Assembly (NCBI GenBank): GCA_965198725.1
Contig: CBDAPX010000001.1
Span: 915,966-979,965 of the forward strand
Origin: Paracoccaceae bacterium
GTDB lineage: Bacteria > Pseudomonadota > Alphaproteobacteria > Rhodobacterales > Rhodobacteraceae
Reading direction: 5' to 3'
DNA: 64,000 nt
Part shown: in pieces, positions 13,303-63,357 of the stretch
Position numbering within the stretch: position 1 is the stretch's first letter
How the letters are laid out: every line of letters begins with the position of its first letter
The notes under the pieces: generated by a model
The model's input: only the letters and a program-made list of their open reading frames with translations
Told to the model about the DNA's origin: nothing
Database searches by the model: none
Program-made: the position numbers and the translations under genes

Positions 13303-14202
13303 TCAAGCTGCGATTTTGTCTGACTTCAAGGCTTCTTCGTATCTCTCCTCGGCTTCGATTGGCGTGATGTACCCGAGTGGTTCAAGCAGGCGCTCTTTGT
13401 TGAACCAGTCCACCCATAGCAGGGTTTCCCATTCGACCTGATCCTTGGACTTCCACGGACCTAGTTGATTGATGACTTCGGTTTTGAAGAGGCCGATGAT
13501 CGTCTCAGCCAGTGCATTGTCATAGCTGTCACCAACGCTGCCGACGGATGGCTCCAGCCCAGCATCGGCCAACCGTTCTGTGTACTTGATCAACACGTAT
13601 TGGCTGCCGCGATCTGAATGATGGATCAGTTTCTCAGCGGGTCTGCGTGCGTGGATCGCCTGTTCAAGCGCATCTAAGACAAACTGCGTGTCCTGCGTTG
13701 TTGATGCCTTCCAGCCCACAATCCGGTTCGCGAAGGTATCAATGACGAACGCCACATAGACGAACCCGCGCCAGGTCGAGACGAACGTAAAGTCGGACAC
13801 CCACAGTTCGTTCGGCATTGAAGCCCTGAACTGGCGATTGACCTTGTCCAGCGGGCATTGATCCGCAGGTTGACCACAGGTGGTTTTGACCTTCTTTCCG
13901 CGCCGGACGCCTTGAATGCTAAGCTGGCGCATCAACCGTTCTACAGTGCAGCGAGCAATATCAATCTTCTCGCGATTCATCGCGTGCCATAGTTTGCGTG
14001 CGCCATAGACAGAACGGTTCTTCTCCCAAACATCCTTCATCGTTTTGCGCAGAAACTCATCCCGCTTGGCCCGGTCCGAGGCACGGTCGGGATCACGCTC
14101 GATGGCAATGCGTTTATAGAACGTCGAAGGGGCAATCTGGAGAACTCTACAGATCGGCTCGACCCCATGCGCCCCACGATGATCCTTGATGAAGGCAATC
14201 AT
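13303..14202 (-). CDS. IS3-family transposase OrfB (DDE integrase core)
   Basis: 299 aa; ...WVSDFTFV...HSDRGSQY...DNALAET... DDE/rve motifs; overlaps orfA stop in the -1 frame. Confidence 0.9.
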   Translation of the reverse strand: MIAFIKDHRGAHGVEPICRVLQIAPSTFYKRIAIERDPDRASDRAKRDEFLRKTMKDVWEKNRSVYGARKLWHAMNREKIDIARCTVERLMRQLSIQGVRRGKKVKTTCGQPADQCPLDKVNRQFRASMPNELWVSDFTFVSTWRGFVYVAFVIDTFANRIVGWKASTTQDTQFVLDALEQAIHARRPAEKLIHHSDRGSQYVLIKYTERLADAGLEPSVGSVGDSYDNALAETIIGLFKTEVINQLGPWKSKDQVEWETLLWVDWFNKERLLEPLGYITPIEAEERYEEALKSDKIAA

Positions 14203-26543: not shown

Positions 26544-27512
26544 ATGGCGACATTCCGAAAGCTCCCCTCGGGCAAGTGGCAAGCCCAAATTGCCCGCAAT
26601 GGTATTCGCAAATCATCGAGCTTTGCAACCAAGCGCGAGGCCCAGGATTGGGCCGCGCGGCAAGAGTATCTTGTGACGAATGCCGAACCTCCCCAAACCA
26701 AACTGACACTCAAAGACGCCTTTGATCGCTACGCCCGCGAGGAATCACCCAAGCGGCGTGGTGAGAGATGGGAAGTGGTGCGCCTTGAGCGTCTGTCATC
26801 TGACAAGATTGCGGATAAGCGGCTGGCCGATCTTGAGCCTGCTGACTTTGCCGAGTGGCGGGATCGCCGCGCCAAAGAGGTTGCACCGGCCACTGTGCGC
26901 CGCGAGATGACGCTTATGTCATCGGTGCTGACAACGGCCCGCCGTGAATGGGGCCTGATCTCTCACAATCCTATCTCTGACATTCGCAAGCCCGCCTCAC
27001 CGCCGCCGCGAGATCGGCGTGTGTCTGCGGATGAGATCGATAAGCTCATCAAGGCGGGCGGCACGGACTTGTCCAAGGCCCAGGCCCGAGCCGTTCATGC
27101 GTTCCGATTTGCGGTGGAGACGGCTATGCGGGCCGGTGAGATCGTGGGGCTGACCGATAAGACGGTTGACCGGGATACGCGGGTGGCCACGTTGCCCAAA
27201 ACCAAGAACGGCACGGCTCGCAAGGTTCCATTGTCCACTGCCGCGCTCGGCCTCTTGGATGAGTTGCCCGAAACCGATGGCCCGCTGTTCGATCTGAGCA
27301 ATCAGCAGATCGATGCGATGTTCCGCAAGGCGCGGGATAAATCAGAGATTGAGGATTTGCGTTTCCACGATAGCCGCCATGAGGCGATCACGCGGCTGGC
27401 GAAAAAGGTGGATGTTCTGAGCCTGGCCCGAATGGTGGGGCACAAAGACGTTAAGATGCTGATGATCTATTATAACGAAACCGCCGAGGAACTGGCTCAG
27501 CGGCTGGACTGA
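26544..27512 (+). CDS. int: tyrosine-type phage integrase
   Basis: 322 aa; MATFRKLPSGKWQAQI... SAM-like N-domain; ...FHDSRHEAITRLA...VGHKD..ML..YY catalytic R..H.R..Y pattern. Confidence 0.9.
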   Translation: MATFRKLPSGKWQAQIARNGIRKSSSFATKREAQDWAARQEYLVTNAEPPQTKLTLKDAFDRYAREESPKRRGERWEVVRLERLSSDKIADKRLADLEPADFAEWRDRRAKEVAPATVRREMTLMSSVLTTARREWGLISHNPISDIRKPASPPPRDRRVSADEIDKLIKAGGTDLSKAQARAVHAFRFAVETAMRAGEIVGLTDKTVDRDTRVATLPKTKNGTARKVPLSTAALGLLDELPETDGPLFDLSNQQIDAMFRKARDKSEIEDLRFHDSRHEAITRLAKKVDVLSLARMVGHKDVKMLMIYYNETAEELAQRLD

Positions 27513-29904: not shown

Positions 29905-30771
29905 TTAGTGCATGATCGACCTTTGGTCCATCTTGACGACGGTTTCGGGAGCCGGTGGGCGGTAGCCTAGAGCACTGTGTGGTCGTTTCGTGTTGTAGTG
30001 TTTCCTCCATTCCTCAATCAGGATTTGTGCTTCGCGCAGGCTATAGAAGATTTCGCCGTTCAAGAACTCATCGCGGAAACGGGCGTTGAAGCTTTCGCAG
30101 TACCCATTCTCCCAAGGGCTGCCTGGTTCGATGTAAGCCGCCCTTGCGCCGACAGCCTTGATCCAGTCCTGCACGGCTTGCGCAACGAACTCAGGGCCAT
30201 TGTCGGAACGGATGAACGACGGGATGCCGCGCAGAATGAACAGGTCGCTCAGCACATCGATCACATTGCCTGAGTTGAGCTTGCGATCCACGCGTATGGC
30301 CAAGCATTCCCGACTGTACTCGTCGATGATGTTGAGTGTGCGGAAAGCTTTACCATCGTCGGTGCGGCAGTGGACAAAGTCGTAAGACCAGACATGATCG
30401 CGGCGCTCTGGCCGAAGCCTGACACATGATCCATCATTCAGCCAAAGCCGCCCTTTCTTCGGTTGTTTCATTGGCACTTTCAGCCCCTCTCGTCGCCATA
30501 ACCGTTCCACGCGCTTGTCATTCACATGCCAGCCAGCGTCTCTCAGTAGTGCCGCGATCCTACGATAGCCGTAGCGGCCATACTGCCGGGTCAGTTCGAT
30601 CATATCAGCCACTAAACGTTCTTCATCCGGGCGACCCGCAGGTACTTTGCGCTGTGTGGATCGATGTTGTCTTAGAACCCGGCATGCCCGACGCTCCGAG
30701 ATGTTCAGCTCAGCACGAACGCGATCAATACAGGCACGACGACGAGCGGGGCTCAGAAGTTTCCCTTTGCC
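29905..30771 (-). CDS. IS3-family transposase OrfB (made as OrfAB by -1 frameshift near 30760-30771)
   Basis: First ATG at 30612, but the frame is open upstream (..LSPARRRACIDRV...ERRACRVL..). DDE core ...WSYDFV..., SDNGPEF, ENGYCESFN. Confidence 0.85.
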   Translation of the reverse strand, partial: GKGKLLSPARRRACIDRVRAELNISERRACRVLRQHRSTQRKVPAGRPDEERLVADMIELTRQYGRYGYRRIAALLRDAGWHVNDKRVERLWRREGLKVPMKQPKKGRLWLNDGSCVRLRPERRDHVWSYDFVHCRTDDGKAFRTLNIIDEYSRECLAIRVDRKLNSGNVIDVLSDLFILRGIPSFIRSDNGPEFVAQAVQDWIKAVGARAAYIEPGSPWENGYCESFNARFRDEFLNGEIFYSLREAQILIEEWRKHYNTKRPHSALGYRPPAPETVVKMDQRSIMH

Positions 30772-42045: not shown

Positions 42046-43319
42046 GTTTAATTTCGCGCCTATTGGGGTCGGGCCAGAGCCAAGCCGCGCGGGTAGAGCC
42101 GCCGATGGTTGCGGCTGCTGGCGAAACCTCGGGCACATCCAAACCTGCCGGTTGGCTTTCAGATACCGGCTGGGGGTCGCAAAGCCGCGTGAAAACGCTG
42201 CCGCGCGTTTCGGCAACCATCGCCCAAAAGCACGCAACCGTGACGGCCTGTTGCAGCGTTCTGGCGGGCGATACCTCCAAGGTTCCTTTGCTGCTCAAGC
42301 GGCTCAAGGATGATGGCGAGGAAGAGGTGATCCGAGATCACCCGTTGGTCTATCTGATGAACGTGGAATCGAGCGATGGCGTTCCGGCCTCAGTTCTGCG
42401 CTTCACGCTGGCCTATGCCTTCACGCTGCGTGGCAATGCCTTTGCCTACACGCCTCGGGATGGTTCCGGCGAACTGACTATGATCGATCTGATCAAGCAG
42501 GATCGGCCAACCGTTCTGCGCAATGGCCGTCAGCGGTTCTATGACTTTGAGGATGGCGCACAGGTCCATCGGCGGGTGCCAAGCCGCTCAATGGCGCATC
42601 TGCGCTATATGTCTGAGGATGGTTGGATGGGCCGCTCGCCTATTGAGGTGGCGGCTGAAAGTATGGGGCTGGCTCTGGCCGGTCAAGAGGCTGCGGCTCG
42701 CGCTGCATCGGGTAGGCCTCTCTCGGCATTGATCGAACTGCCTGACAACTTTGAGGGCGATGATGGTTGGGAGCGCAATGCTACTCGGCTTGGGGATCGG
42801 CTGCGTAATCCAAATGAATCGGGCATTGCAATGGTGCCTGAGGGGACAAAGGCAAACCGCCTGGATATGTCTGCTGCCGATCAGGAACTGTTGGGAAGCC
42901 GCAAGTTCGACAAGGTGCAGATCCTGGGCATTTACCGCGTGCCTGGTTTCAAAGTGCAGGATGTTGAGGGTGGCGTGAAGGCGAACAGTGAGCAAAGTTC
43001 CATCGACTATCGCACGGATGCTCTGCTGCATTGGGGCGGGTTCATTGAAACCGGCTTGGCCCTGGCGCTGCTCACGCGGGGCGAGCGTGAGGCGGGCTAC
43101 TTTCTTGAGCATGATTTTGACGCGCTAATGCGCCCCACACTCAAGGATCGCTATGACGCCATGCACAAGGCCGTGGGTGGCCCGTTCATGACTGCGAACC
43201 ATGCCCAGAAACGCCTCGGCCTGCCGATCACTGATGGGCCGGATGATGACAAGTTGAACCCTGCGCCGAACATGACGCGGGACAAAGAGAAGAGCGGCGA
43301 AAAGGAGACTGAGGAATGA
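42042..43319 (+). CDS. portal protein (HK97 family)
   Basis: 425 aa following terL; typical portal size and position. Confidence 0.85.
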   Translation: MSLISRLLGSGQSQAARVEPPMVAAAGETSGTSKPAGWLSDTGWGSQSRVKTLPRVSATIAQKHATVTACCSVLAGDTSKVPLLLKRLKDDGEEEVIRDHPLVYLMNVESSDGVPASVLRFTLAYAFTLRGNAFAYTPRDGSGELTMIDLIKQDRPTVLRNGRQRFYDFEDGAQVHRRVPSRSMAHLRYMSEDGWMGRSPIEVAAESMGLALAGQEAAARAASGRPLSALIELPDNFEGDDGWERNATRLGDRLRNPNESGIAMVPEGTKANRLDMSAADQELLGSRKFDKVQILGIYRVPGFKVQDVEGGVKANSEQSSIDYRTDALLHWGGFIETGLALALLTRGEREAGYFLEHDFDALMRPTLKDRYDAMHKAVGGPFMTANHAQKRLGLPITDGPDDDKLNPAPNMTRDKEKSGEKETEE

Positions 43320-44206
43320 CGAAACAAACAATTGCCAGCCTGTTCGCGGCCACTGATTTGGCGATCTGCGCTCAGAGTGCGCAGGCGCTCTTGAGCCTGC
43401 CGATGCCCAAAGCCGAAACCAAGGCTGTGACCAATGCGGCGATGATCGCGCGGGGCGAGCGCTTTGCGATCTCGCGCGGTGTTGCCGAGGTGCCGGTCAA
43501 GGGGCTGCTCACGCCGAACCTCTTTGTTTTGGAGCGCTGGCTTGGATGGGCCACCTATCAGGGCCTTGAGGAAACGCTGAACCTGCTGGCCAGCAATGAA
43601 GAGGTTTCCGCCATTGTGTTGGAATTCGACACACCAGGCGGGATGGTTCTGGGGGTTGAGGCTGCAAATGCCGCCATTGCAGCCTGTGCCAAAGTGAAGC
43701 CGGTTCATGCGCTGGTGAACCCGCTCTGTGCCTCGGCAGGATATTGGCTGGCCTGCGCCTCCACCGAGATCACCGCCACGGCAGGTTCCTTGATCGGGTC
43801 CATTGGCACGATGCGCGGGGCCTACGCAGCAGAGGAACCATTCTATGAATTCCGTTCCTCGCACGCTCAGGCCAAGAACCCTGATCCTTCGACTGAGGAA
43901 GGCAAGGCGGAAATCCAGAAAGTGCTGGACCTGGCCGAGGCCAAGTTCCACCAGGCGATTGCCACTGGCCGCAAGATCGCGCCGGCAGACCTGCCCACAC
44001 GGATCAGCGCCACTGATGACGCCAAGGATGGCGGGCGGGCCTTTGAGGTATCAGAGGCGCAATCGCGCGGCCTGATCGATGCCGCCGAGACGCGGGATGC
44101 TTTCTATGCTCGCATCTTTTCCAAGTATGGGCCTAAGCCGCGCACCTCTGGGCGGCGGGCCATGACGGCGAAAGCCAAGGCCGCACAGGCCATCGCCGCC
44201 ACCTGA
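43316..44206 (+). CDS. head maturation protease (S49/SppA-ClpP fold)
   Basis: ...AIVLEFDTPGG....G....A........KPV.A.V....ASAGYWLA S49 pattern. Confidence 0.8.
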   Translation: MTKQTIASLFAATDLAICAQSAQALLSLPMPKAETKAVTNAAMIARGERFAISRGVAEVPVKGLLTPNLFVLERWLGWATYQGLEETLNLLASNEEVSAIVLEFDTPGGMVLGVEAANAAIAACAKVKPVHALVNPLCASAGYWLACASTEITATAGSLIGSIGTMRGAYAAEEPFYEFRSSHAQAKNPDPSTEEGKAEIQKVLDLAEAKFHQAIATGRKIAPADLPTRISATDDAKDGGRAFEVSEAQSRGLIDAAETRDAFYARIFSKYGPKPRTSGRRAMTAKAKAAQAIAAT

Positions 44207-53316: not shown

Positions 53317-53748
53317 ATGATCCGGCAAGCTGTCGATGCTGACCGCCCGAACATGGTTCGGATGGGGCGGGATTTCGTGTGCGCGTCTGGTTTGCCTCTG
53401 CCCTTTGATGCGGCATGGGCAGATCGGTCGCTGGCCGGGCATATGGCGCAACCTGACCGACTGGCGTTGGTGCTGGAACTTGATGGCGCAGCGCGCGGCA
53501 TGCTGTGCGCCGCGCAGGTCCAGTCACCGCTGGCCCCTGTGCGCGTGGCATCCGAATTGGTGTTTTGGATCGATCCGCCTGCGCGTGGCCGATGGGCGAT
53601 GAAAATGATCTGCGCCTATGAGGCGTGGGCGAAAGAACAGGGTTGCGCCTTGGCCAGTTTGGCCACGGTCGGAGCCAAAGGCGCGGATGCGCTTTATCGG
53701 CGGTGCAGTTTTGCGCCTGCCGAACGTCACTTCATGAAGGTTCTCTGA
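53317..53748 (+). CDS. GNAT-fold acetyltransferase-like protein inside tail module
   Basis: 143 aa; ...VFWIDPPARGRWAMKMICAYEAWAKEQGC....L......A..LY.R..F resembles the GNAT beta4-alpha3 acetyl-CoA loop. Confidence 0.5.
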   Translation: MIRQAVDADRPNMVRMGRDFVCASGLPLPFDAAWADRSLAGHMAQPDRLALVLELDGAARGMLCAAQVQSPLAPVRVASELVFWIDPPARGRWAMKMICAYEAWAKEQGCALASLATVGAKGADALYRRCSFAPAERHFMKVL

Positions 53749-56700
53749 TGGCAGTTTTCACAGCGATTGCGACCGCGATTGGCATTGGCGGCACGTTCCT
53801 TGGAACGCTGTTTGTCGCGGGCCTGAAAACCCTTGTGGGCATCGGTCTGAACAAGCTGGCCATGAAACTGGCCGGGAAAAAACAGGGTGATGGTTCGCAG
53901 TTTTCCGTTAAAAGCCAACTGCAGCGCGGAGCGGACCTGCCGCAATCCTTCCTGATCGGAAAGTGCGCAACCGCCGGTTCGCTGACCTATGCCAACACAT
54001 GGGGTGAAGCGGGTGGCACACCGAACGCCTATCTGACGATGGTGATTTCGCTCAGTGACATTCCGGTGCAGTCACTGGACGGCATTTGGGTCAATGGCGA
54101 AGCGGGCACCATTGGTGCAACCGCCCATGCTGATTATGGGTTCCCGGTCAAAGAGTTCCACAAGGATGGGAAAGATCATCTATGGGTGAAGTTCTTTGAC
54201 GGCACCCAGACGGCGGCTGATAGCTATCTGGTGAACACGGCGTCGAACGCGGAACGCCCATGGGATGCCAATGCCATCGGTCACGGCACGGCATACGCTG
54301 TGATGACGGCCCGGATCAATCAAGACCTGTTCAACGGCTTTCCATCCTTCCTGTTCGAACTGACAGGCGCGCGGTTTTACGATCCTTCCAAGGACAGCAG
54401 TGTCGGTGGCGTGGGCGCGCAGCGGTGGAGCGATCCGGCGACATGGGGCGGCGATGGTGATCTGTTGCCAGCGGTCCAGCTTTATAATCTGTTTCGCGGC
54501 ATGCAATTTGGGGACCGCTGGTTCTACGGCATGCAGGCCACCACCGCAGAACAGATGCCTGTGGCGCATTGGATTGGCCAGATCAACAAATGCCGCTCTT
54601 TGATTGCGGCACAAGGCGGCAATGAGCCAAAGTTTCGGTCGGGCGGCGAAATCGCTGTGGGCGCGCCGATTGCCGATGCGATGGAAGCGCTGCTGGATGC
54701 GTGTCAGGGCCGCATTACGGAATCGGGCGGTGTCTACAAGCTGTTCGTGGGTCATCCCGAAACAACCGTTGCGTCCTTCAGTGATGACGACATCCTGTCG
54801 ACTGAAGAGCAGTCATTCACACCGTTCTTTGGTCTGGCGGATACCGTCAACGGCGTGAACGCCAAGTATCCTGACCCCGATCAGGGCTGGCAGATTGAAA
54901 CCGCGCCACCGCTGAACAATTCCGACTATGAGGCCGAAGACGGTGCGCGACGGCTGATGGTCGATGTGCAGTTTGATCTTGTGCCCTACGCAGAGCAGGT
55001 GCAGCGCCTGATGCTGGCATCGCTCAATGAAGCCCGTCGCGCCCGCCGCCACACGTTCACGTTGCCGCCACGGTTCTGGGCGTTGGAGCCGGGTGACGTG
55101 GTTGAATGGACCAGTGCGCGCAATGGCTATGATGCCAAGCTGTTCCGTGTCGATGGGGTTCTGGACCAGCCCAATGCGGATGTGGTTGTCGATCTGACAG
55201 AAATTGACCCGACCGATTATGACTTCGACACGAATGTAGATTTCACACCTGTCGGGGGCGGATCGGTCACAAGCCCGATTTATCCGCCGCAGACGATTGC
55301 GGGCTGGACGGCGCAAGCCTCTTCGGTGCCGGATTCCACAGGGCTTGGCCGTCTTCCAGCGATCATGATCACATGGAATGGTGATGTTGATGATGTCGCT
55401 GCGGTGCAGGTGCGTGTTCGCGTCAAGGCGACTGGGGCTGTGGTGTTTTCGGGGCGCTTTGATGACGTGGTTGCGGGCACGGCGCTCATTGCCGAAGGCA
55501 TTCTGCCTGCGACTGAATATGAGGTTCAGGGGCGTTATATCCCGCGCAGCCCGCGCGATGTCGCGTGGTCTGACTGGTTGACCGTTATGACGCTGGATTT
55601 GCGTTTGGGCATCACAGATTTAGCGACGGAGGTTGGGCAGGCAATTTCCGATGCTCAAGCGGCGGCGGATGGCGCTGCTGCGGATGCGACCCAAGCCCTA
55701 CAGGATGCAGCGGATGTGCAGGCTGACCACAACGCGCTGACCAATGATTTCACCGGAACGCTGAACGCGGCGTTTTCGCAAAGGGATGCTGGTATCGCTG
55801 CAGCGCAGGCGGCGGCTGATGATGTGCAGGCTGATCATGATGCGCTGGTTGCTGGCTTTACCGGCGGCACGATTGAAGGGGCGATTGAAGCCCTGCGCGC
55901 AGAGAATGAGGCCAATATCGCGCCGCTTGGGGCATCTGTCTTGCGTGAGCCGCGCAGCCTCTGGTCGTGCAACGTGCATGTGGCCCGGCCTGATCTGGTG
56001 AAGCCTGCTGTGACCACGGGTCTGTTCATCACCGATGACGCAGATTTCGGGGAGTGCTTCGAATTTGGCGGGGTTTACAACACCAATCTTGGCCCAGCCT
56101 ATCCGGTCGAATTTGACCCGAACCGGGTCTACCGTATCACCGCCTGCTATAAGGTGGTTGATGATAATGGCGGCGCAGGGGTGCGTTTGCACCTTGGCGT
56201 ATCGACCCAAACGGGCACAACGCTTGTTCAGTCAAACATCCAGTCCGAGTTGCACAGCCCTTGGCTTCTGGTTGCCGATGGCCCGCAAACTTCGGTGCGC
56301 TATGTGTCGGGCGATGCGGCGGCGCTGGACGCCTATGGCATTGCCGGTTCTGACCGTATTGTCCTGACGGGGTCTGCATCGGCCAACAAGCTCTATCCCC
56401 AGCTTCGACAAAACAGTCGTGGTTCAACCAGCGGCAAGGTTCGGGTGGCCAGCATTGAAGTGGTCGATGTCACCGAAGCGCTGTCGGGCGTGAATGCCCT
56501 GCGCACAGAATTACAGAGCAATATCGACGGGGTCAGTGCCACACTGGCCAATGACTATTACACCGCTGTCGCCACCGATCAGGCCATTTCTGCGGCACAG
56601 CAGACCTTGCAGTCGAATATCGACGGCGTTGCCTCAGACCTGCAGACAAATCACTACACAATCGCCCAAACCGATGGTGCGATCAGCGCGGCCACCACAG

Positions 56701-59700
56701 CGCTGCAGGCGCAGATGGAATCGCCATCCGGGTCCATTGGGTCGCTATCTGCCACGTTGACCAGCGACTATTCTACTACGGTGCAGATGGATCATGCGAT
56801 TTCCGCCGCACAGACCGCGCTGCAATCCAGCATTGATGGCGTCTCTGCCGATCTGTCGAACAACTACTACACTTCGGTTCAGGTTGACGGCGCGATTTCG
56901 ACGGCCCAGACCACATTGCAGGCGGACATTGATGATGTCTTCAGTGATCTGGCGGACGCCCTGCCATCTGACTTTTCTGAGCAGGGCCGGTTCTGGACCG
57001 AAAGCATTTCGGGTGCGACGGCAGCAACGGGTGATGTCGATGCCAATGTGTCCTTTGTCACAACGGCCAACGATGGTCCGATTTGCCGGATTGATATTTC
57101 CACCACTGTGGGGGCGAGCAACCATATCGCCCCGCGTGGCCGTCTGCCTTATGTCGTGGGCCGCAAATACAAGGTCACTGTCACAGCCCGTCTGACCGGC
57201 GTTTCCAGCCTGGGCGATGGTCGGGCGTTCAACATCCAGTTTCGCGGTTTGAATGGCAGATACGGTTCGGTGTCGGGTGCGTGGAGCACATTCCATCCGT
57301 CCTTCGCTTCGGTCGATACATGGGAGGTCTTCACCCATGAATTTGAAGCTACCGATCAGGGCGCATGGGCCGACATTGCGCATTTACTGCCCTTTGTCTA
57401 CCGCTTGAGTTCCTATGTGCGAGCCGGTGCCTATTTGGACATCAAGTCCATTGTCATTGAAGATGTGACCGAAGCGGGCAGCATCGCATCGAACCTGCAG
57501 CAGAATTATTCGACCACGGCGCAGATGGATCAAGCCATCGCGCTTGCCCGGACCACGTTGCAATCGAGCATCGACGGTGTCGCGTCGGACCTGTCAAACA
57601 ACTACTACACCGAAGCCCAGACGGGCGCGGCGATCACTTCGGCCACCACAGCGCTGCAATCCAGCATTGATGGCGTCTCTGCCGATCTGTCGAACAACTA
57701 CTACACTTCGGTTCAGGTTGACGGCGCGATTTCGACGGCCCAGACCACATTGCAGGCGGACATTGATGATGTCTTCAGTGATCTGGCGGACGCCCTGCCA
57801 TCTGACTTTTCTGAGCAGGGCCGGTTCTGGACCGAAAGCATTTCGGGTGCGACGGCAGCAACGGGTGATGTCGATGCCAATGTGTCCTTTGTCACAACGG
57901 CCAACGATGGTCCGATTTGCCGGATTGATATTTCCACCACTGTGGGGGCGAGCAACCATATCGCCCCGCGTGGCCGTCTGCCTTATGTCGTGGGCCGCAA
58001 ATACAAGGTCACTGTCACAGCCCGTCTGACCGGCGTTTCCAGCCTGGGCGATGGTCGGGCGTTCAACATCCAGTTTCGCGGTTTGAATGGCAGATACGGT
58101 TCGGTGTCGGGTGCGTGGAGCACATTCCATCCGTCCTTCGCTTCGGTCGATACATGGGAGGTCTTCACCCATGAATTTGAAGCTACCGATCAGGGCGCAT
58201 GGGCCGACATTGCGCATTTACTGCCCTTTGTCTACCGCTTGAGTTCCTATGTGCGAGCCGGTGCCTATTTGGACATCAAGTCCATTGTCATTGAAGATGT
58301 GACCGAAGCGGGCAGCATCGCATCGAACCTGCAGCAGAATTATTCGACCACGGCGCAGATGGATCAAGCCATCGCGCTTGCCCGGACCACGTTGCAATCG
58401 AGCATCGACGGTGTCGCGTCGGACCTGTCAAACAACTACTACACCGAAGCCCAGACGGGCGCGGCGATCACTTCGGCCACCACAGCGCTGCAAGCAGCAA
58501 TGGAAGCGCCAAGCGGGTCTATCGGCAGTCTGTCTGCAACCCTGACCAGCGACTATTACACTGGTGTTCAAACCGATGGCGCGATCAGTGCCGCTGTGAC
58601 CACGCTGGAAGCGACGTTCGGGCCGTCCGCGCTCAGCAACGGCTGCATTCAAGACCCGACTTTGTCAGAGCAAGACGGGACAAAATGGACCCGCTGGTCA
58701 AGCGGTGGAACGCTCACGTTCTCAGATAATCAGGTCTATCCAACTGGGAAGAGTGCGCGCTTCGTCTGTGCGTCTGGCGACAATAGCGGCCTATATACAG
58801 CTTCGCATCGGGCCACATGGATCGGCGCAGAAAATCTGGACGCCTATGTCGTTGAGGTTGATTTCACCTTGAATTCGGGAAGTCTGAGCGGGGCCGGGGT
58901 TCGGGTGGATTGGGACAAAACGACAGGCGAACGCACCACACCGATTGCGCTACAGCACATGCAGGTAACTGGCACGACAGGATTTGTGCAACGTGCGTCG
59001 GCGGTGTTCTTGAAGCCCTCGAATTTTGCGGGCACGTTTGTTGATCACGATCTATACCTCTTTGCGAATTTTTGGGGCCTTCCGAATTCGCCAAAGGCTG
59101 CGAAAGACATTACCTTCCATCGCTGTTTCATCCGCCCCGCAACCCCGGAAGAAACGGGTTCCGGCATTCTGGCCGACACGCTGAACGCAGAGATCACCGA
59201 CATCAAGGGGCTGGATGTCGATGCTAGCACAGCCTTCGGCACTTTGATGCAGCAGCTGCAGGTGAATGCGGGCGGTACCAGCGCGACCATCACCAACCAC
59301 GCATCCGCCGTGGCCGAACTAAATGGCTTCAGTTCGGCCTTCGCAGGCGTGACCGTTGACACCAATGGCGGCAATATCGCGGGCTTGCGGGCAACGTCCT
59401 TCGCCAACCCGGATGGGTCGGGCAATGGTGTGCTGGAACTGTTGGGGGATGTGGTGGCCGAAGGCACACTGTCCACCAATAAGCTGGTTGTCGGTCTGGG
59501 CCGCAATCTGCTGTCAAACACGGATTTCAGCGACGGGCTACAAGGGTGGATTAGAACGGGCGGTTCCGGTAGCGGTGCAACCGCGACCTTGTCGCTGCGT
59601 CCGCCGGGTTCATGGGCTGGTGCATATTTTCCGGTTCTGCAGCTTTACCAAGGCTCGTCTGCAAGCGACGGGTATCGAGATGTCGAACATCGCCCGCATC

Positions 59701-60581
59701 TGACTGACGGTAGTGTTTCCGTTGGTGTGCCCGTGGAAGCCGGGCAATGGCTGGAAGCCAGTGTGAAAGCCTCGATCCATCGGTGTGTTTTTGAATTGCG
59801 CATTCGGTTTCTGGATGCGTCCGGCGCGCATCTTGCGTGGTCGGGCGTTATTGCAAGCGGCAATGGCGCGACATCGTCTTCGACGGACCCAGAACTATGG
59901 CCGGTGTATTGGGGGAAGGCTCTGGCACCTGCGGGTGCGGCCTACGCGACGGTTCATTATCGCAAGTTGGCCACTAATACGGGTTCGAACAGTTATCTGT
60001 TCATCCATAAGCCACAGCTTGCGGTTTCGCATGCAAGTGCGACCCAGCCCGCACCCTACAGCCCCGGTGGCACCACGCTGATTTCCGGCGACAAGATCAT
60101 GACTGGTGCTATCACGGCAGAAAGCGCCATTCTGGCCAGTGCCAGCGTGGTCGAAGCGAACATTCAGGATCTGGCCGTGTCCACCCTGAAGATCAAGGAT
60201 CAGGCCGTCACTATTCCCGTCTATGTGCAGGACAACGTGCTTCAGAACATCCACAGCACAACAGACTGGGTGACGGTCATCAGCGCGGTGATGGACCGGG
60301 AAGGCTATGCCACGGCGTTGCAGTTCACCGCCCAGATCGACGGTTATGGCGATGGCAACCTGATGTTCGGTTTCGCGCGCAACGGCGGGCATTTCAACAA
60401 TGGCTTCACCCAGCATATCGCAGGCAACGGGTCGCAAACCAATGTGACAATTTCGACAGTGGACACAAACACAGGCACCGGCCCGACCACCTACAGTGTT
60501 CATTGTCGCCGTGTCAGCGGCCTGAACAGGCATGGCCGCGTGTTCAAGAAGTTCCTGTCGGCACACCAGTTCAAGAAATAG
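53748..60581 (+). CDS. giant host-specificity / tail fibre protein (2277 aa)
   Basis: ATG overlaps GNAT stop (TGATG). N-terminus resembles RcGTA g15/lambda J-type phage-tail_3 domain, followed by 32-aa LQSxIDGVxxDLxxNYYT repeats alternating with about 190-aa beta-sandwich-like modules. Confidence 0.85.
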   Translation: MAVFTAIATAIGIGGTFLGTLFVAGLKTLVGIGLNKLAMKLAGKKQGDGSQFSVKSQLQRGADLPQSFLIGKCATAGSLTYANTWGEAGGTPNAYLTMVISLSDIPVQSLDGIWVNGEAGTIGATAHADYGFPVKEFHKDGKDHLWVKFFDGTQTAADSYLVNTASNAERPWDANAIGHGTAYAVMTARINQDLFNGFPSFLFELTGARFYDPSKDSSVGGVGAQRWSDPATWGGDGDLLPAVQLYNLFRGMQFGDRWFYGMQATTAEQMPVAHWIGQINKCRSLIAAQGGNEPKFRSGGEIAVGAPIADAMEALLDACQGRITESGGVYKLFVGHPETTVASFSDDDILSTEEQSFTPFFGLADTVNGVNAKYPDPDQGWQIETAPPLNNSDYEAEDGARRLMVDVQFDLVPYAEQVQRLMLASLNEARRARRHTFTLPPRFWALEPGDVVEWTSARNGYDAKLFRVDGVLDQPNADVVVDLTEIDPTDYDFDTNVDFTPVGGGSVTSPIYPPQTIAGWTAQASSVPDSTGLGRLPAIMITWNGDVDDVAAVQVRVRVKATGAVVFSGRFDDVVAGTALIAEGILPATEYEVQGRYIPRSPRDVAWSDWLTVMTLDLRLGITDLATEVGQAISDAQAAADGAAADATQALQDAADVQADHNALTNDFTGTLNAAFSQRDAGIAAAQAAADDVQADHDALVAGFTGGTIEGAIEALRAENEANIAPLGASVLREPRSLWSCNVHVARPDLVKPAVTTGLFITDDADFGECFEFGGVYNTNLGPAYPVEFDPNRVYRITACYKVVDDNGGAGVRLHLGVSTQTGTTLVQSNIQSELHSPWLLVADGPQTSVRYVSGDAAALDAYGIAGSDRIVLTGSASANKLYPQLRQNSRGSTSGKVRVASIEVVDVTEALSGVNALRTELQSNIDGVSATLANDYYTAVATDQAISAAQQTLQSNIDGVASDLQTNHYTIAQTDGAISAATTALQAQMESPSGSIGSLSATLTSDYSTTVQMDHAISAAQTALQSSIDGVSADLSNNYYTSVQVDGAISTAQTTLQADIDDVFSDLADALPSDFSEQGRFWTESISGATAATGDVDANVSFVTTANDGPICRIDISTTVGASNHIAPRGRLPYVVGRKYKVTVTARLTGVSSLGDGRAFNIQFRGLNGRYGSVSGAWSTFHPSFASVDTWEVFTHEFEATDQGAWADIAHLLPFVYRLSSYVRAGAYLDIKSIVIEDVTEAGSIASNLQQNYSTTAQMDQAIALARTTLQSSIDGVASDLSNNYYTEAQTGAAITSATTALQSSIDGVSADLSNNYYTSVQVDGAISTAQTTLQADIDDVFSDLADALPSDFSEQGRFWTESISGATAATGDVDANVSFVTTANDGPICRIDISTTVGASNHIAPRGRLPYVVGRKYKVTVTARLTGVSSLGDGRAFNIQFRGLNGRYGSVSGAWSTFHPSFASVDTWEVFTHEFEATDQGAWADIAHLLPFVYRLSSYVRAGAYLDIKSIVIEDVTEAGSIASNLQQNYSTTAQMDQAIALARTTLQSSIDGVASDLSNNYYTEAQTGAAITSATTALQAAMEAPSGSIGSLSATLTSDYYTGVQTDGAISAAVTTLEATFGPSALSNGCIQDPTLSEQDGTKWTRWSSGGTLTFSDNQVYPTGKSARFVCASGDNSGLYTASHRATWIGAENLDAYVVEVDFTLNSGSLSGAGVRVDWDKTTGERTTPIALQHMQVTGTTGFVQRASAVFLKPSNFAGTFVDHDLYLFANFWGLPNSPKAAKDITFHRCFIRPATPEETGSGILADTLNAEITDIKGLDVDASTAFGTLMQQLQVNAGGTSATITNHASAVAELNGFSSAFAGVTVDTNGGNIAGLRATSFANPDGSGNGVLELLGDVVAEGTLSTNKLVVGLGRNLLSNTDFSDGLQGWIRTGGSGSGATATLSLRPPGSWAGAYFPVLQLYQGSSASDGYRDVEHRPHLTDGSVSVGVPVEAGQWLEASVKASIHRCVFELRIRFLDASGAHLAWSGVIASGNGATSSSTDPELWPVYWGKALAPAGAAYATVHYRKLATNTGSNSYLFIHKPQLAVSHASATQPAPYSPGGTTLISGDKIMTGAITAESAILASASVVEANIQDLAVSTLKIKDQAVTIPVYVQDNVLQNIHSTTDWVTVISAVMDREGYATALQFTAQIDGYGDGNLMFGFARNGGHFNNGFTQHIAGNGSQTNVTISTVDTNTGTGPTTYSVHCRRVSGLNRHGRVFKKFLSAHQFKK
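56817..58493 (+). repeat. perfect 834-bp in-frame tandem duplication (2 copies + 9 bp) inside fibre gene
   Basis: 56817-57650 and 57651-58484 read identical by line-by-line comparison; identical antisense ORFs at +834 offset in the ORF track. Confidence 0.9.
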
Positions 60582-60590
60582 GAGGGCGCT

Positions 60591-60833
60591 ATGAAGGCTG
60601 CAAATACGACTTTGATTTCTGGTGAAATTTCGGCCACGGGGGAGGTATTGGCCGACGGTCCAGTCGAGCAAGCGAACATTCCAACGCTTCATGTATCGAA
60701 TTTGGTTTTATTCGAAGACGGGGTTTCGAATCCGCCGGATCAGAAACATCGTGCTGAAGCGGCATTGCAGGCCGAAACCACATTGGAAATTGGAGCGCCA
60801 GTTCTCGGTGGCTATGGATATTTGTCAGGCTGA
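60591..60833 (+). CDS. hypothetical protein
   Basis: 80-aa ORF directly after the fibre gene. Confidence 0.4.
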   Translation: MKAANTTLISGEISATGEVLADGPVEQANIPTLHVSNLVLFEDGVSNPPDQKHRAEAALQAETTLEIGAPVLGGYGYLSG

Positions 60834-61295
60834 CGATGTCGCTCTAACCCGGTAGTCCAGCCAATTGTTTTCGCTTTGCCAATCCAGATGTATAGCGCAG
60901 TTTTCAAGGAAATTTCGGCCAATGATGGCATGGTATGGGGCGCCTGCGGCCAGTCCTTCAACCGCTATCAATTGAGCCTGCTGCGTCAATGATATGTCGG
61001 GGAAAGCCAAGGCGCTGTTGAACGCAAAAACTGGTGTTGAAAGGCTAACGGTTCTCATTTCGCGGGTGGAAAACTCGCTGTGTCCTAGGCTTTTTGCTAG
61101 GTCCAAGTCTACCGTTGTTGTGCCTGCCCCGGTGTCAACCAACGTCCATATTGGTGGGGAAAAGGTGGACAGATCATTCGTCCAATTGGGTTTTGCCAAT
61201 TGGACGGAAATTACAGGCGCGCGTGAACCGACCGTGCTGCCGTCAATCGAGACAGTCACAAACTGGATGGGTATTCGAAGGGTGCGAATGGGCAT
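60825..61295 (-). CDS. retropepsin-like (clan AA) aspartic protease
   Basis: 156 aa; catalytic LVDTGAGTT and flap/dimer motif AIIGRNFL; no signal peptide; about 50-53% GC by hand count in 60841-60960. Confidence 0.7.
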   Translation of the reverse strand: MPIRTLRIPIQFVTVSIDGSTVGSRAPVISVQLAKPNWTNDLSTFSPPIWTLVDTGAGTTTVDLDLAKSLGHSEFSTREMRTVSLSTPVFAFNSALAFPDISLTQQAQLIAVEGLAAGAPYHAIIGRNFLENCAIHLDWQSENNWLDYRVRATSSA

Positions 61296-61313
61296 TTTAG
61301 AAACCTTACCTCA

Positions 61314-62156
61314 ATGGAGAAACACATGATCGACTTTACCGTCTATGACGGCCCAACAGGCCGCATTCTTCGTGTTGGGCAATCGCAGCCCAGCACCCTG
61401 CATCATCAAGCGCTTGGCGACAGCGAAGCCATGATCTTTGGGGTGTTTGATGCGGATACCCACTACATTTCTCAAGGGCGCGCGCGAATGCGACCCGTCC
61501 TACCTGCCATCACCTTGAATGGACAGGGCTGGGAATTTGACGGCCTGCCACCTGAAGGAACTGCGGCGCAGGTCCAGTCGCTGTTCATTGACGGCACCTT
61601 TGACATTGACGCTCGCACAGTCGCTTTGGCCGTGCCGGAACCTGCGCAGGTTCAGATCACCGCCCCATGGCCGTATCAGGACGTGCAGATTGAACTGGAC
61701 GGAACACCACAGGCACCCGTTGCCGATGCGCAAATTATTGGACCTGATCTGGATCGTATGAAGGACCATTTCGGCGCGGAACTTTACCGGCAAGCGGATG
61801 CTTTGATGCTGTCGATGCTGGGAAATCCTGACGAAAACACGCAAAAACGCTGGCTGGTCAAACGGGCGATCTTCGACAAGTTCGAAGCGGGCAACCTGTC
61901 AGAATCGGACCGCGCGGCACTGGCTGAAGAGGTCCGATATTCGGGCGAAACGGTTGAAGATCATCTGACGGTGATCGGCAAGAAAGTCGCATTCCAGAAC
62001 TGGGTGACATTCCGGTCAGACGGCCTGCGGGCCGAAGCCGAAAACCGGCTGGACGGGGCCACCATAGCGGAAGAGGCGTTGGCCGCGATCACATGGGCCG
62101 AAACGGAAAGCGCAAACGCTGTGGCTGAAGCGCAGGCGCTTCTGACAGCAGGATAA
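61314..62156 (+). CDS. tail fibre assembly/chaperone-like protein (tentative)
   Basis: N-terminus IDFTVYDGPTGRILRVGQ...DADTHYI resembles tail-fibre-assembly/DUF4376-type proteins; alternative start 61326. Confidence 0.4.
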   Translation: MEKHMIDFTVYDGPTGRILRVGQSQPSTLHHQALGDSEAMIFGVFDADTHYISQGRARMRPVLPAITLNGQGWEFDGLPPEGTAAQVQSLFIDGTFDIDARTVALAVPEPAQVQITAPWPYQDVQIELDGTPQAPVADAQIIGPDLDRMKDHFGAELYRQADALMLSMLGNPDENTQKRWLVKRAIFDKFEAGNLSESDRAALAEEVRYSGETVEDHLTVIGKKVAFQNWVTFRSDGLRAEAENRLDGATIAEEALAAITWAETESANAVAEAQALLTAG

Positions 62157-62252: not shown

Positions 62253-62531
62253 ATGGAGATGAGCGGGACAATGACAGAAAAGACCCTGGAGGCTTCTTTC
62301 TCGGAGGATGAGCGTGCGGCGCTGCATTCTCTGGCAGAGATGTTTCAAGATAAAGACTGCCGCGACGAACTGCGGACCCTTGTTCACGAGGGAACGACAC
62401 TGCGCGAGATAATTCTCGCGTACAAGGCCAACCGCCGGGTGATTTCGACCCTGAAGACGGTCGGCGGATTGATCATTCTTGCGGGCGGCTCCGTCGCGGC
62501 CCTCAAGGGCCTTGGCCTCTGGCCCAAGTAA
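62253..62531 (+). CDS. small membrane protein (holin/antiholin candidate)
   Basis: 92 aa with a single C-terminal TM, VGGLIILAGGSVAALKGLGLW. Confidence 0.4.
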   Translation: MEMSGTMTEKTLEASFSEDERAALHSLAEMFQDKDCRDELRTLVHEGTTLREIILAYKANRRVISTLKTVGGLIILAGGSVAALKGLGLWPK

Positions 62532-62555
62532 CAGACGCCATCTTGCAACCGAACC

Positions 62556-62582
62556 GGCCCGCCATCCGTGCGGGCCTTTTTT
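62556..62582 (+). terminator. intrinsic terminator 14 bp upstream of the endolysin start
   Basis: GGCCCGC-CATCCGT-GCGGGCC followed by TTTTTT. Confidence 0.7.
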
Positions 62583-62595
62583 ATGGAGAACTGAC

Positions 62596-63357
62596 ATGTT
62601 CGATCAAAACTGGCAGGCCATTGTCCTGCGTTCCTATACCGCTTGGGCGTTCTACATCCTTGCGGCGATCACCCTTGCGCCAGACATCATCTACCTGGTG
62701 GCTGAGCGTGACACCAACCCGGCTGTCTGGTCGGCCCTGCAAATCTGGGTCATTGTTTTGGGCATTCTGGGCCGTCTGGTTTTGCAACCCCATGAAGGGG
62801 CTTTGCGGCGGCGGCTTATTCTGGGCGTCGTGGTGATCGGCACAATCCTTGTTGCGGCGCAGGCGATGGCGCAGACTACGGAACGGGCCACGATGCGTGT
62901 CTTGGTGCCGCTGGTCATCAAGTGGGAAGGCGAACACCGATGCTCTGATGCCCGTCACCTGCATTGCGCTTATCGTGACATCGTGGGGGTGCCGACGCTC
63001 TGCTATGGCGAAACGCTGGGCGTTCGCATGGGGGATCGGGCAACCGATGCGGAATGCCGTGATGAGTTGGAACACCGTTTGACTGATGATTTCCGCGACG
63101 GCCTGCATCGGTATTTCAGTGACACCACGCGCGGAACCCGGCTGACACCGCATCGGGACGCCGCCTATGTCTCGCTAGCCTACAACGTGGGCATTCGGGG
63201 TGCTGGCCGCTCCACCGCTACGCGCCGTCTGAATGCCGGCGACATCGCAGGTGGCTGTGCGGCTTTGGGATGGTGGAACAAGGCCGGTGGCCGGGTTGTG
63301 CGGGGGCTGGTGAATCGACGCGCTGAAGAAACTGCGCTTTGCCTTCGGGGCCTGTGA
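62596..63357 (+). CDS. GH24-type lysozyme with three N-terminal hydrophobic helices
   Basis: IKWEGE...AYRDIVGVPTLCYGET...AAYVSLAYNVG lysozyme motifs; preceded by AWAFYILAAITLAPDIIYLV, VWSALQIWVIVLGILGRLVL, LILGVVVIGTILVAAQAMA. Confidence 0.8.
   Translation: MFDQNWQAIVLRSYTAWAFYILAAITLAPDIIYLVAERDTNPAVWSALQIWVIVLGILGRLVLQPHEGALRRRLILGVVVIGTILVAAQAMAQTTERATMRVLVPLVIKWEGEHRCSDARHLHCAYRDIVGVPTLCYGETLGVRMGDRATDAECRDELEHRLTDDFRDGLHRYFSDTTRGTRLTPHRDAAYVSLAYNVGIRGAGRSTATRRLNAGDIAGGCAALGWWNKAGGRVVRGLVNRRAEETALCLRGL

Follow-up and report, generated by a model that had tools for sequence, protein, structure and literature searches.

The sequence analysed here, referred to throughout as the window, is a stretch of 64,000 nucleotides from a Paracoccaceae bacterium (GenBank assembly GCA_965198725.1, contig CBDAPX010000001.1, positions 915,966 to 979,965). 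It contains an integrated prophage in whose late region one gene is oriented against its neighbours. This gene, at 60825..61295 on the minus strand, is an intact open reading frame (ORF) of 156 aa with an ATG start, as seen in the ORF list and its translation, and its reading frame, remote homology, motifs, and AlphaFold2 and Foldseek results indicate a retropepsin-like (clan AA) aspartic protease. A preliminary description of this DNA had pointed out two clan AA motifs, and both are present: LVDTGAG occupies residues 52-58, with L52-V53-D54-T55-G56-A57 satisfying the catalytic-Asp pattern of the clan (hydrophobic-hydrophobic-D-T/S-G-A), and IIGRNFL occupies residues 124-130, with I124-I125-G126-R127-N128 satisfying the hydrophobic-hydrophobic-Gly-Arg pattern (IIGRN in the protease of human immunodeficiency virus 1, HIV-1). 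The antisense placement reported there also holds, as the plus strand carries every large gene from TerL (40348) to the Rz-like gene (63707), and the retropepsin ORF is the sole credible minus-strand gene within the late block. Its stop overlaps the plus-strand ORF at 60591..60833 (hereafter ORF80) by 9 bp (60825-60833), again as described. The maximum Kyte-Doolittle mean over 19 residues is 1.17, which gives no transmembrane segment, and inspection of the hydrophobicity of the sequence revealed no obvious signal-peptide h-region, in agreement with the earlier statement that a signal peptide is absent. The product is probably soluble and, judging from its sequence, apparently cytoplasmic. The low GC content estimated earlier was likewise reproduced: it is 0.520 for the protease ORF and 0.502 for ORF80, compared to 0.58 for the tail fibre gene upstream, 0.578 for the 276-aa gene downstream, and 0.608 for the lysis genes. 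GC at third codon positions is lower as well (0.548 and 0.457, against 0.61-0.71 in the surrounding genes).

An ORF of this length is at chance level in this region, where there are 18 minus-strand ORFs of at least 156 aa between 40348 and 64000, the other 17 of which lie inside known plus-strand genes. The GC content of the protease ORF is also flat over the three codon positions, and a chance antisense ORF that is not a gene was therefore an explanation to be considered. The preliminary description had named PF13650, PF13975, and TIGR03698 as suitable models for a hidden Markov model (HMM) search, and these did produce matches, but every score was beneath its curated cut-off (PF13650, 21.7 bits against a cut-off of 24.3; PF13975, 20.2 against 28.2; TIGR03698, 18.3 against 57.35), as was that of RVP (PF00077; 14.6 against 20.7). 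We consider the gene to be real because of its homology and predicted fold, and not because of its length or the curated models. A phmmer search of 1.8 billion representative proteins yielded 14 remote matches with whole-library E-values of 1e-7 to 8e-4, mostly proteins of 120-165 aa, and no relative exceeded ~39% identity. In an alignment of the window protein and 12 of these relatives (A1, 13 members), D54, T55, G56, L70, G126, R127, and L130 are invariant, and D54, T55, G56, G126, and R127 are also invariant in a second alignment (A2). The DTG motif, whose loss in homologues had been named as evidence against the original assignment, is thus kept across both. All 13 members of A1 match both PF13650 and PF13975 at E<=0.01. 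When the A1 profile was compared with solved structures, the best matches were the protease of human T-lymphotropic virus 1 (HTLV-1; 1.4e-6) and Ddi1 (8e-6), followed by the proteases of HIV-1, equine infectious anaemia virus (EIAV), and feline immunodeficiency virus (FIV), and by the rickettsial protein ApRick; a sequence search of the Protein Data Bank (PDB) with the single window protein returned only noise. As A2 includes the window protein, we rebuilt its profile without it, and this leave-one-out profile scored the window protein at 53.8 bits (E 9e-19), whereas the best of 1000 shuffled sequences reached 8.1 bits. An AlphaFold2 model built from 64 sequences is confident over nearly the whole chain (mean predicted local distance difference test score, pLDDT, 86; predicted template modelling score 0.79). 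Foldseek placed ApRick (5c9f, E 1.7e-5) first among solved structures, with the HIV-1, EIAV, FIV, and HTLV-1 proteases and Ddi1 next, and the retropepsin matches had a probability of 1.00 and template modelling (TM) scores of 0.4-0.69. The motifs are correctly spaced and invariant in the family, and the ORF occupies a stretch that is unused by plus-strand genes, in a place where related prophages have no DNA at all. We therefore regard the chance-ORF explanation as effectively refuted by the fold match and the leave-one-out profile: the model and the profiles indicate that the gene is real and that its product has a retropepsin fold, and the family assigned earlier was right at the level of the clan.

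The nearest family to the window protein consists of "predicted aspartyl proteases" of ~150 aa, with 305 matches at E<1e-5. No PHROGs family was found for the protease, and only one of 64 relatives matches any PHROG. We also searched 50,697 phage records and 72,556 plasmids with blastn and tblastn, which returned nothing for the region, the retropepsin, the neighbouring 276-aa protein, P0012 (a relative of the protease, discussed below), or P0009. Scans of IMG/VR with the 276-aa neighbour and with the retropepsin gave no match, and neither did a scan of genome contigs with the 276-aa neighbour protein. By its sequence, the protease is a divergent near-orphan.

The protease gene lies within a lineage-specific foreign patch of ~0.73 kb (60591..61316) that is delimited by synteny, homology breakpoints, and a dip in GC content to 0.50-0.53 in windowed plots, and that amounts almost exactly to two convergent ORFs, ORF80 and the retropepsin gene. 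For comparison, we used the corresponding loci of four related prophage lineages (L004, L005/L006, L007, and L008/L009). The Phage-tail_3 host-specificity gene is followed by the homologue of the 276-aa gene after 8 bp in L004 and L007 and after 2 bp in L008 and L009, while in L005 and L006 only an unrelated plus-strand ORF of 54 aa lies between the two. None of these loci (L004-L009) has a minus-strand gene at the junction, and the family HMM found no retropepsin anywhere in them. On its right side, the patch gives way at 61317 to DNA homologous to L004, 9 bp before the conserved start (ATG-ATC-GAC) of the 276-aa gene, and on its left side the fibre C-terminus (...QFKK, conserved with L004), the stop codon, and the Shine-Dalgarno/ATG are conserved. 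The absence of the gene from the same junction in four lineages and its lower GC and GC3 bear out the earlier view of an inserted, compositionally foreign accessory gene. Recurrence of such genes at this site, for which a survey had been proposed, was not found: the position beside the fibre gene recurs in none of the contexts that could be read.

The other ORF of the patch, ORF80 (60591..60833, plus strand), begins on the Shine-Dalgarno sequence and ATG that follow the fibre stop codon. In a BLASTP comparison, its residues 6-48 aligned to residues 2150-2198 of the resident fibre with 41% identity over 49 columns (E 3e-5), and weaker matches were found to the fibres of L004 (3.8e-4) and L008 (0.006). 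The matched segment is a conserved hinge motif, "TTLISG...ANI.DLAVSTL", located ~170 residues before the C-terminus of host-specificity proteins. At the DNA level, the 12-mer AAGCGAACATTC is common to positions 60154 and 60670, and ORF80 matches no Pfam, PHROG, or PADLOC family. This ORF, previously listed as one of the late genes, probably derives from the 3' module of a different fibre gene, of which it would be a truncated remnant, and the retropepsin gene probably came in together with it by mosaic recombination. Other origins of the patch were examined and rejected. There are no flanking direct or inverted repeats beyond chance, and a target-site duplication at the patch ends was dropped because the two Shine-Dalgarno-ATG junctions have only about half of their bases in common. 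An invertible fibre switch of the Mu G or P1 C type was dismissed, as the inverted matches are short and at chance level and the minus-strand ORF is a protease and not a fibre module. A diversity-generating retroelement was set aside because the patch is only ~0.73 kb and no reverse transcriptase match was obtained among the surrounding genes scanned, and a non-coding RNA because the Rfam match reached just 23.5 bits against a gathering score of 155.

The setting of the patch is a prophage of siphovirus type in a Rhodobacteraceae-like host. Host genes fill the first 26 kb of the window (aminotransferase, ammonium transporter, PBP1, ABC transporter, FemAB-like, and CHAD functions) and are followed by a tyrosine integrase at 26544-27512. 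From 40348, the plus strand encodes the terminase, portal, head protease, major capsid, tape measure, and distal tail proteins and a giant host-specificity protein whose gene ends at 60581; tail genes upstream of the fibre were assigned using PHROGs. After the host-specificity gene come a gene of 276-280 aa, a holin-like ORF, a lysozyme, and the Rz-like gene. The host-specificity (gpJ-like tail fibre) gene is listed as an ORF from 53625, and its likely start is the ATG at 53748 (MAVFTAIA...), giving 53748..60581 on the plus strand; its homologues in L004, L005, L007, and L008 carry PF13550 (Phage-tail_3). Depending on the start chosen, the fibre is 2277-2318 aa long, compared to 1159-1968 aa in its relatives. 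The gene contains a 100% identical direct repeat (56814-57113 and 57648-57947, reported as 300 nt, 834 nt apart), and the translation shows a protein repeat of ~278 aa, which suggests a very recent tandem duplication that lengthened this fibre beyond those of its relatives. Further along, the ORF at 62479-63357 (plus strand) has a lysozyme domain (residues 164-284) after ~160 residues with hydrophobic stretches and overlaps the 3' end of the 92-aa holin-like ORF (62253-62531); its product may be an endolysin of the membrane-tethered or signal-anchor type. Two ORFs for IS3-type transposases (rve, HTH_21, rve_3) were also observed on the minus strand, one in host DNA (13303-14202) and the other (29905-30612) near the integrase in the early part of the prophage.

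The gene on the other side of the patch, at 61326..62156 on the plus strand, is a conserved late gene of 276 aa with homologues of 42-66% identity, conserved synteny, and membership in phrog_18216 (unknown function); the homologues include proteins of Tateyamaria sp. and Rhodobacteraceae bacterium G21628-S1, and a second copy with 47% identity (P0135) is found on the same chromosome. Judging from these homologues, the host probably belongs to the roseobacter group. The preliminary description placed the start of this gene at 61314, only 18 bp from that of the protease. However, the database protein P0132 is 276 aa long, the homologues in L004 and L005 begin with MID or MIE, and those in L007 and L008 lack the four additional residues that a start at 61314 would give. 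The gene most likely starts at 61326 (MIDF...), with a divergent gap of 30 bp. The confident AlphaFold2 model of its product (pLDDT 89) consists of an N-terminal beta domain and a C-terminal helical bundle. Its fold matches are weak, with DUF4376 and tail assembly chaperone proteins among them. Because of these matches and its fixed position after the fibre gene, the protein may be a tail-fibre assembly or accessory protein. If so, the patch probably belongs to the tail module, with the fibre gene on one side and a possible assembly-chaperone-like gene on the other, and is not at the tail-lysis boundary or "fibre-lysis junction" described earlier; this placement is weakly supported.

To gain insight into the wider family, we inspected the genomic contexts of the relatives of the protease. 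The cellular relatives are found in unrelated chromosomal neighbourhoods (L002/L003, L010, and L011) or in a possible mobile element (L001). In five of six relative contexts, a conserved same-strand gene of 75-92 aa is located directly upstream of the retropepsin gene and abuts or overlaps its start (L002, 7763-7990; L010, 5736-6014; L011, 5757-5990; L012, 3145-3420; L013, 5763-6008). Its product carries the motif GPYLIRQVGA, in which LIRQVGA is invariant, and shows weak matches to DUF5678. Two of these contexts are IMG/VR viral contigs (L012 and L013), and the pair in L013 is near genes for a PD-(D/E)XK nuclease and RecT, that is, in an early region. From this arrangement, the partner and the retropepsin look like an unstudied two-gene module, and a literature search turned up no paper on the function of DUF5678 and none that mentions the PADLOC model PDC-M08. 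The window protein has a weak match to PDC-M08B (E 7.6e-4, 17.5 bits, residues 52-140), as does P0012 (E 2.7e-7), and this is likely to reflect generic clan AA similarity. A PDC-M08 defence system was dropped as a reading of this locus because its partner component was not found: ORF80, the 276-aa gene, and the upstream neighbours of the relatives match no PADLOC model. P0012, which covers 93% of the window protein, is encoded in L001 (252-9190) among small genes of unknown function. Its gene has those of a DUF4145 protein (phrog_1305, "DNA binding protein") and an AAA_25 protein beside it, and the 84-aa gene upstream of it is unrelated to the DUF5678-like partner. The L001 region may be a mobile or phage-like element. 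Among viral proteins, the protease has its best structural matches in proteins of 127-182 aa from uncultured Siphoviridae, Myoviridae, crAss-like, and marine phages, and by these structural matches free-standing retropepsin-like proteins do exist in phages.

We favour, with a probability of about 0.55, the interpretation that this is a genuine accessory-cargo gene encoding a divergent, soluble, dimeric aspartic protease that is predicted to function in the lysogen phase if it is expressed. The gene arrived in a low-GC foreign patch of ~0.73 kb, together with a fibre fragment (ORF80), and this patch entered the few bases that normally separate the fibre gene from the 276-aa gene. The product would form a homodimer, as in the rest of the family (the model is of a single chain), with D54 of each chain contributing to the catalytic dyad under two flaps, and would by analogy cut a specific cytoplasmic protein or peptide. 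The gene has a probable ribosome-binding site, GAGGTAAGG (61304..61312, minus strand), which was read from the sequence and ends 8 nt before the ATG, and the start agrees with the N-terminus of P0012 (MPxR...IRIPVQ). Since the patch appears to have brought in this site but no promoter, any transcription would have to come from the antisense strand of the 5' coding region of the 276-aa gene, where it would be opposed by late read-through; for this reason, expression, if any, would be expected mainly in the lysogen, while the late genes are silent. The most likely class would then be a lysogen-phase accessory function outside the virion assembly programme. A role as the head maturation protease was rejected, as the prophage encodes its own head protease separately at 43316-44206. 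Several observations weigh against our interpretation. Only ~20 bp of foreign DNA lie upstream of the protease ATG, and a scan of the preceding 225 nt of the minus strand detected no promoter-like site, although it used an E. coli-type consensus, which says little for alphaproteobacterial promoters. The lone regional match to the promoter consensus is at 61762-61734, and the count of such matches is no greater than in shuffled sequence. The flat GC content over codon positions means that there is no strong coding periodicity. A word-indexed search of 5.8 billion clusters recovered only the window protein itself, in a cluster of size 1, making it a singleton among ~15 billion sequences. The nearest family has 35 positions with a conservation of at least 90%, of which the window protein has kept 16 and lost 19; both flap glycines are replaced (G82T and G85L) and the C-terminal Y-G-G motif is gone. 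The upstream side of the gene is occupied by the divergent 276-aa gene and not by a same-strand partner of ~80 aa, and a profile of the partner (A5) found nothing better than E 2.4 in the six-frame translation of the window, which also led us to reject a toxin-antitoxin-like pair at this locus.

Many of these points would be accounted for if the gene is silent recombination debris, the scar of an illegitimate or mosaic fibre-module exchange that is promoterless, unexpressed, and intact only because it is recent. We consider this a serious rival, though a more doubtful one: the adjacent ORF80 is a truncated fibre-hinge fragment, the foreign DNA ends just before the start codon with neither promoter-like nor terminator-like sites found, the composition shows no drift towards host values, the protein is a database singleton that has lost many conserved positions, including the flap glycines, and the partner gene present beside its relatives is lacking. 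However, the frame is uninterrupted over 156 codons, with a plausible ribosome-binding site and a start that matches P0012, and all residues of the catalytic core are retained (kept in the family-wide comparison are L52, V53, D54, T55, G56, A57, D63, A67, L70, P99, G126, R127, F129, and L130) in a protein that is modelled confidently over nearly its full length. Consensus promoter scans are, moreover, of little value for alphaproteobacterial promoters. We think it very unlikely that the protease has a late morphogenetic role as a module-specific maturation factor that processes or assembles the giant fibre or another virion protein. Its position, flanked by the fibre gene and a possible assembly-chaperone-like gene, and its arrival with a fibre-gene fragment would fit such a role, but the accompanying fragment is truncated, the gene is antisense to the late operon so that late transcription works against it, and it is absent from all of the related prophages, whose fibre termini are homologous and in which the downstream gene is the same. 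We know of no maturation pathway of tailed phages that uses a retropepsin, and a literature search found none. A role in defence or exclusion is possible. In its specific form, an active single-gene protease expressed in the lysogen for phage-phage or phage-host conflict that cleaves, for example, a superinfecting phage's protein or a host factor required by that phage, we regard it as improbable; if true, prophage cargo would for the first time include an exclusion or defence function based on an aspartic protease. The gene had previously been suggested to be a moron. Its absence in relatives, deviant GC content, and opposite orientation agree with this. Consensus scans and folding showed no terminator-like site downstream of the protease, nor one within the patch that would stop late read-through into the 276-aa gene. 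Because the foreign DNA ends ~20 bp upstream of the ATG and no promoter or terminator was found, the idea of a classical, self-contained moron with its own transcription unit is weakened, although the scans themselves are weak.

Bacterial retropepsin-like proteases are widespread and barely studied, and the few characterised examples that we found are APRc, RimB, and the Rlo enzymes, none of which has a known role in phage biology according to our literature search. The preliminary description had stated that free-standing enzymes of this type have no established role in phages, and we likewise found no paper giving one. If it is expressed, this prophage-borne, free-standing enzyme, whose active site is intact, would offer a convenient way into the study of this group. 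The relatives of the protease suggest that the wider family includes a two-gene module that has yet to be characterised; the small protein and the retropepsin could form an unrecognised toxin-antitoxin-like or defence module, with the window gene as a solo derivative. The patch itself is a clean example of mosaic recombination at a fibre gene that dropped foreign cargo into a tail operon.

The window protein resembles bacterial proteins of the PF13650 (Asp_protease_2) and PF13975 (gag-asp_proteas) families, which are ~130-170 aa long, in its size and single-lobe fold, and it has in common with them the DTGA motif, the ψψGR motif, an N-terminal beta extension, and significant profile homology. 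It differs from them in its low identity (20-39%), in its scores below both gathering cut-offs, and in the loss of the flap GxxG and the C-terminal YxGxxG; its gene also has no partner and is located in a prophage tail module and not in a chromosome or an early phage region. Rickettsia conorii has a membrane-anchored retropepsin-like protease, APRc. This protein (ApRick; PDB 5c9b, 5c9d, and 5c9f; PMC4140852) is the best match among solved structures (E 1.7e-5, TM 0.51/0.59), and both are bacterial retropepsin-like proteins with a DTG motif that are ~15% identical in the structural alignment. APRc is described as a surface-associated protein of rickettsiae (PMC8649778) that modulates other surface proteins, whereas the window protein has no membrane segment. 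RimB of Pseudomonas is a cytoplasmic retropepsin-like protease of ~163 aa that trims polyglutamate tails from RpsF and is encoded with partner enzymes in the rimABK operon (PMC11957791), and it shows that such enzymes can have a single, narrow regulatory substrate. Like the window protein, RimB is small, and it has no reported signal peptide, in contrast to the secreted RloA, RloA2, and RloA3; unlike in RimB, no rim partner genes are near the window ORF, and neither RimB-type models nor the solved RloA structures were among the best matches of the window protein. The best structural matches overall are phage proteins from metagenomic genomes, such as A0A8S5LJK9 of Siphoviridae sp. ct3o911 and the crAss-like "Retropepsin-like protein" A0A8S5QUR9 (E 2e-7, TM 0.64/0.70), which are similar in length, free-standing, and phage-borne, with just 12-18% identity to the window protein. 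In terms of its genomic situation, the closest parallel is with the morons of temperate phages such as bor of lambda, a gene close to the lysis cassette whose transcription runs against that of the late genes. Like these, the window gene is an extra gene missing from relatives, with deviant composition and in opposite orientation in a late region. Classical morons bring their own promoter and terminator, while neither was detected for the window gene, whose foreign DNA stops ~20 bp before the start codon. Overall, the protease belongs to a known type of enzyme, of which it is a new and highly divergent representative, and its genomic situation is likewise of a known type.

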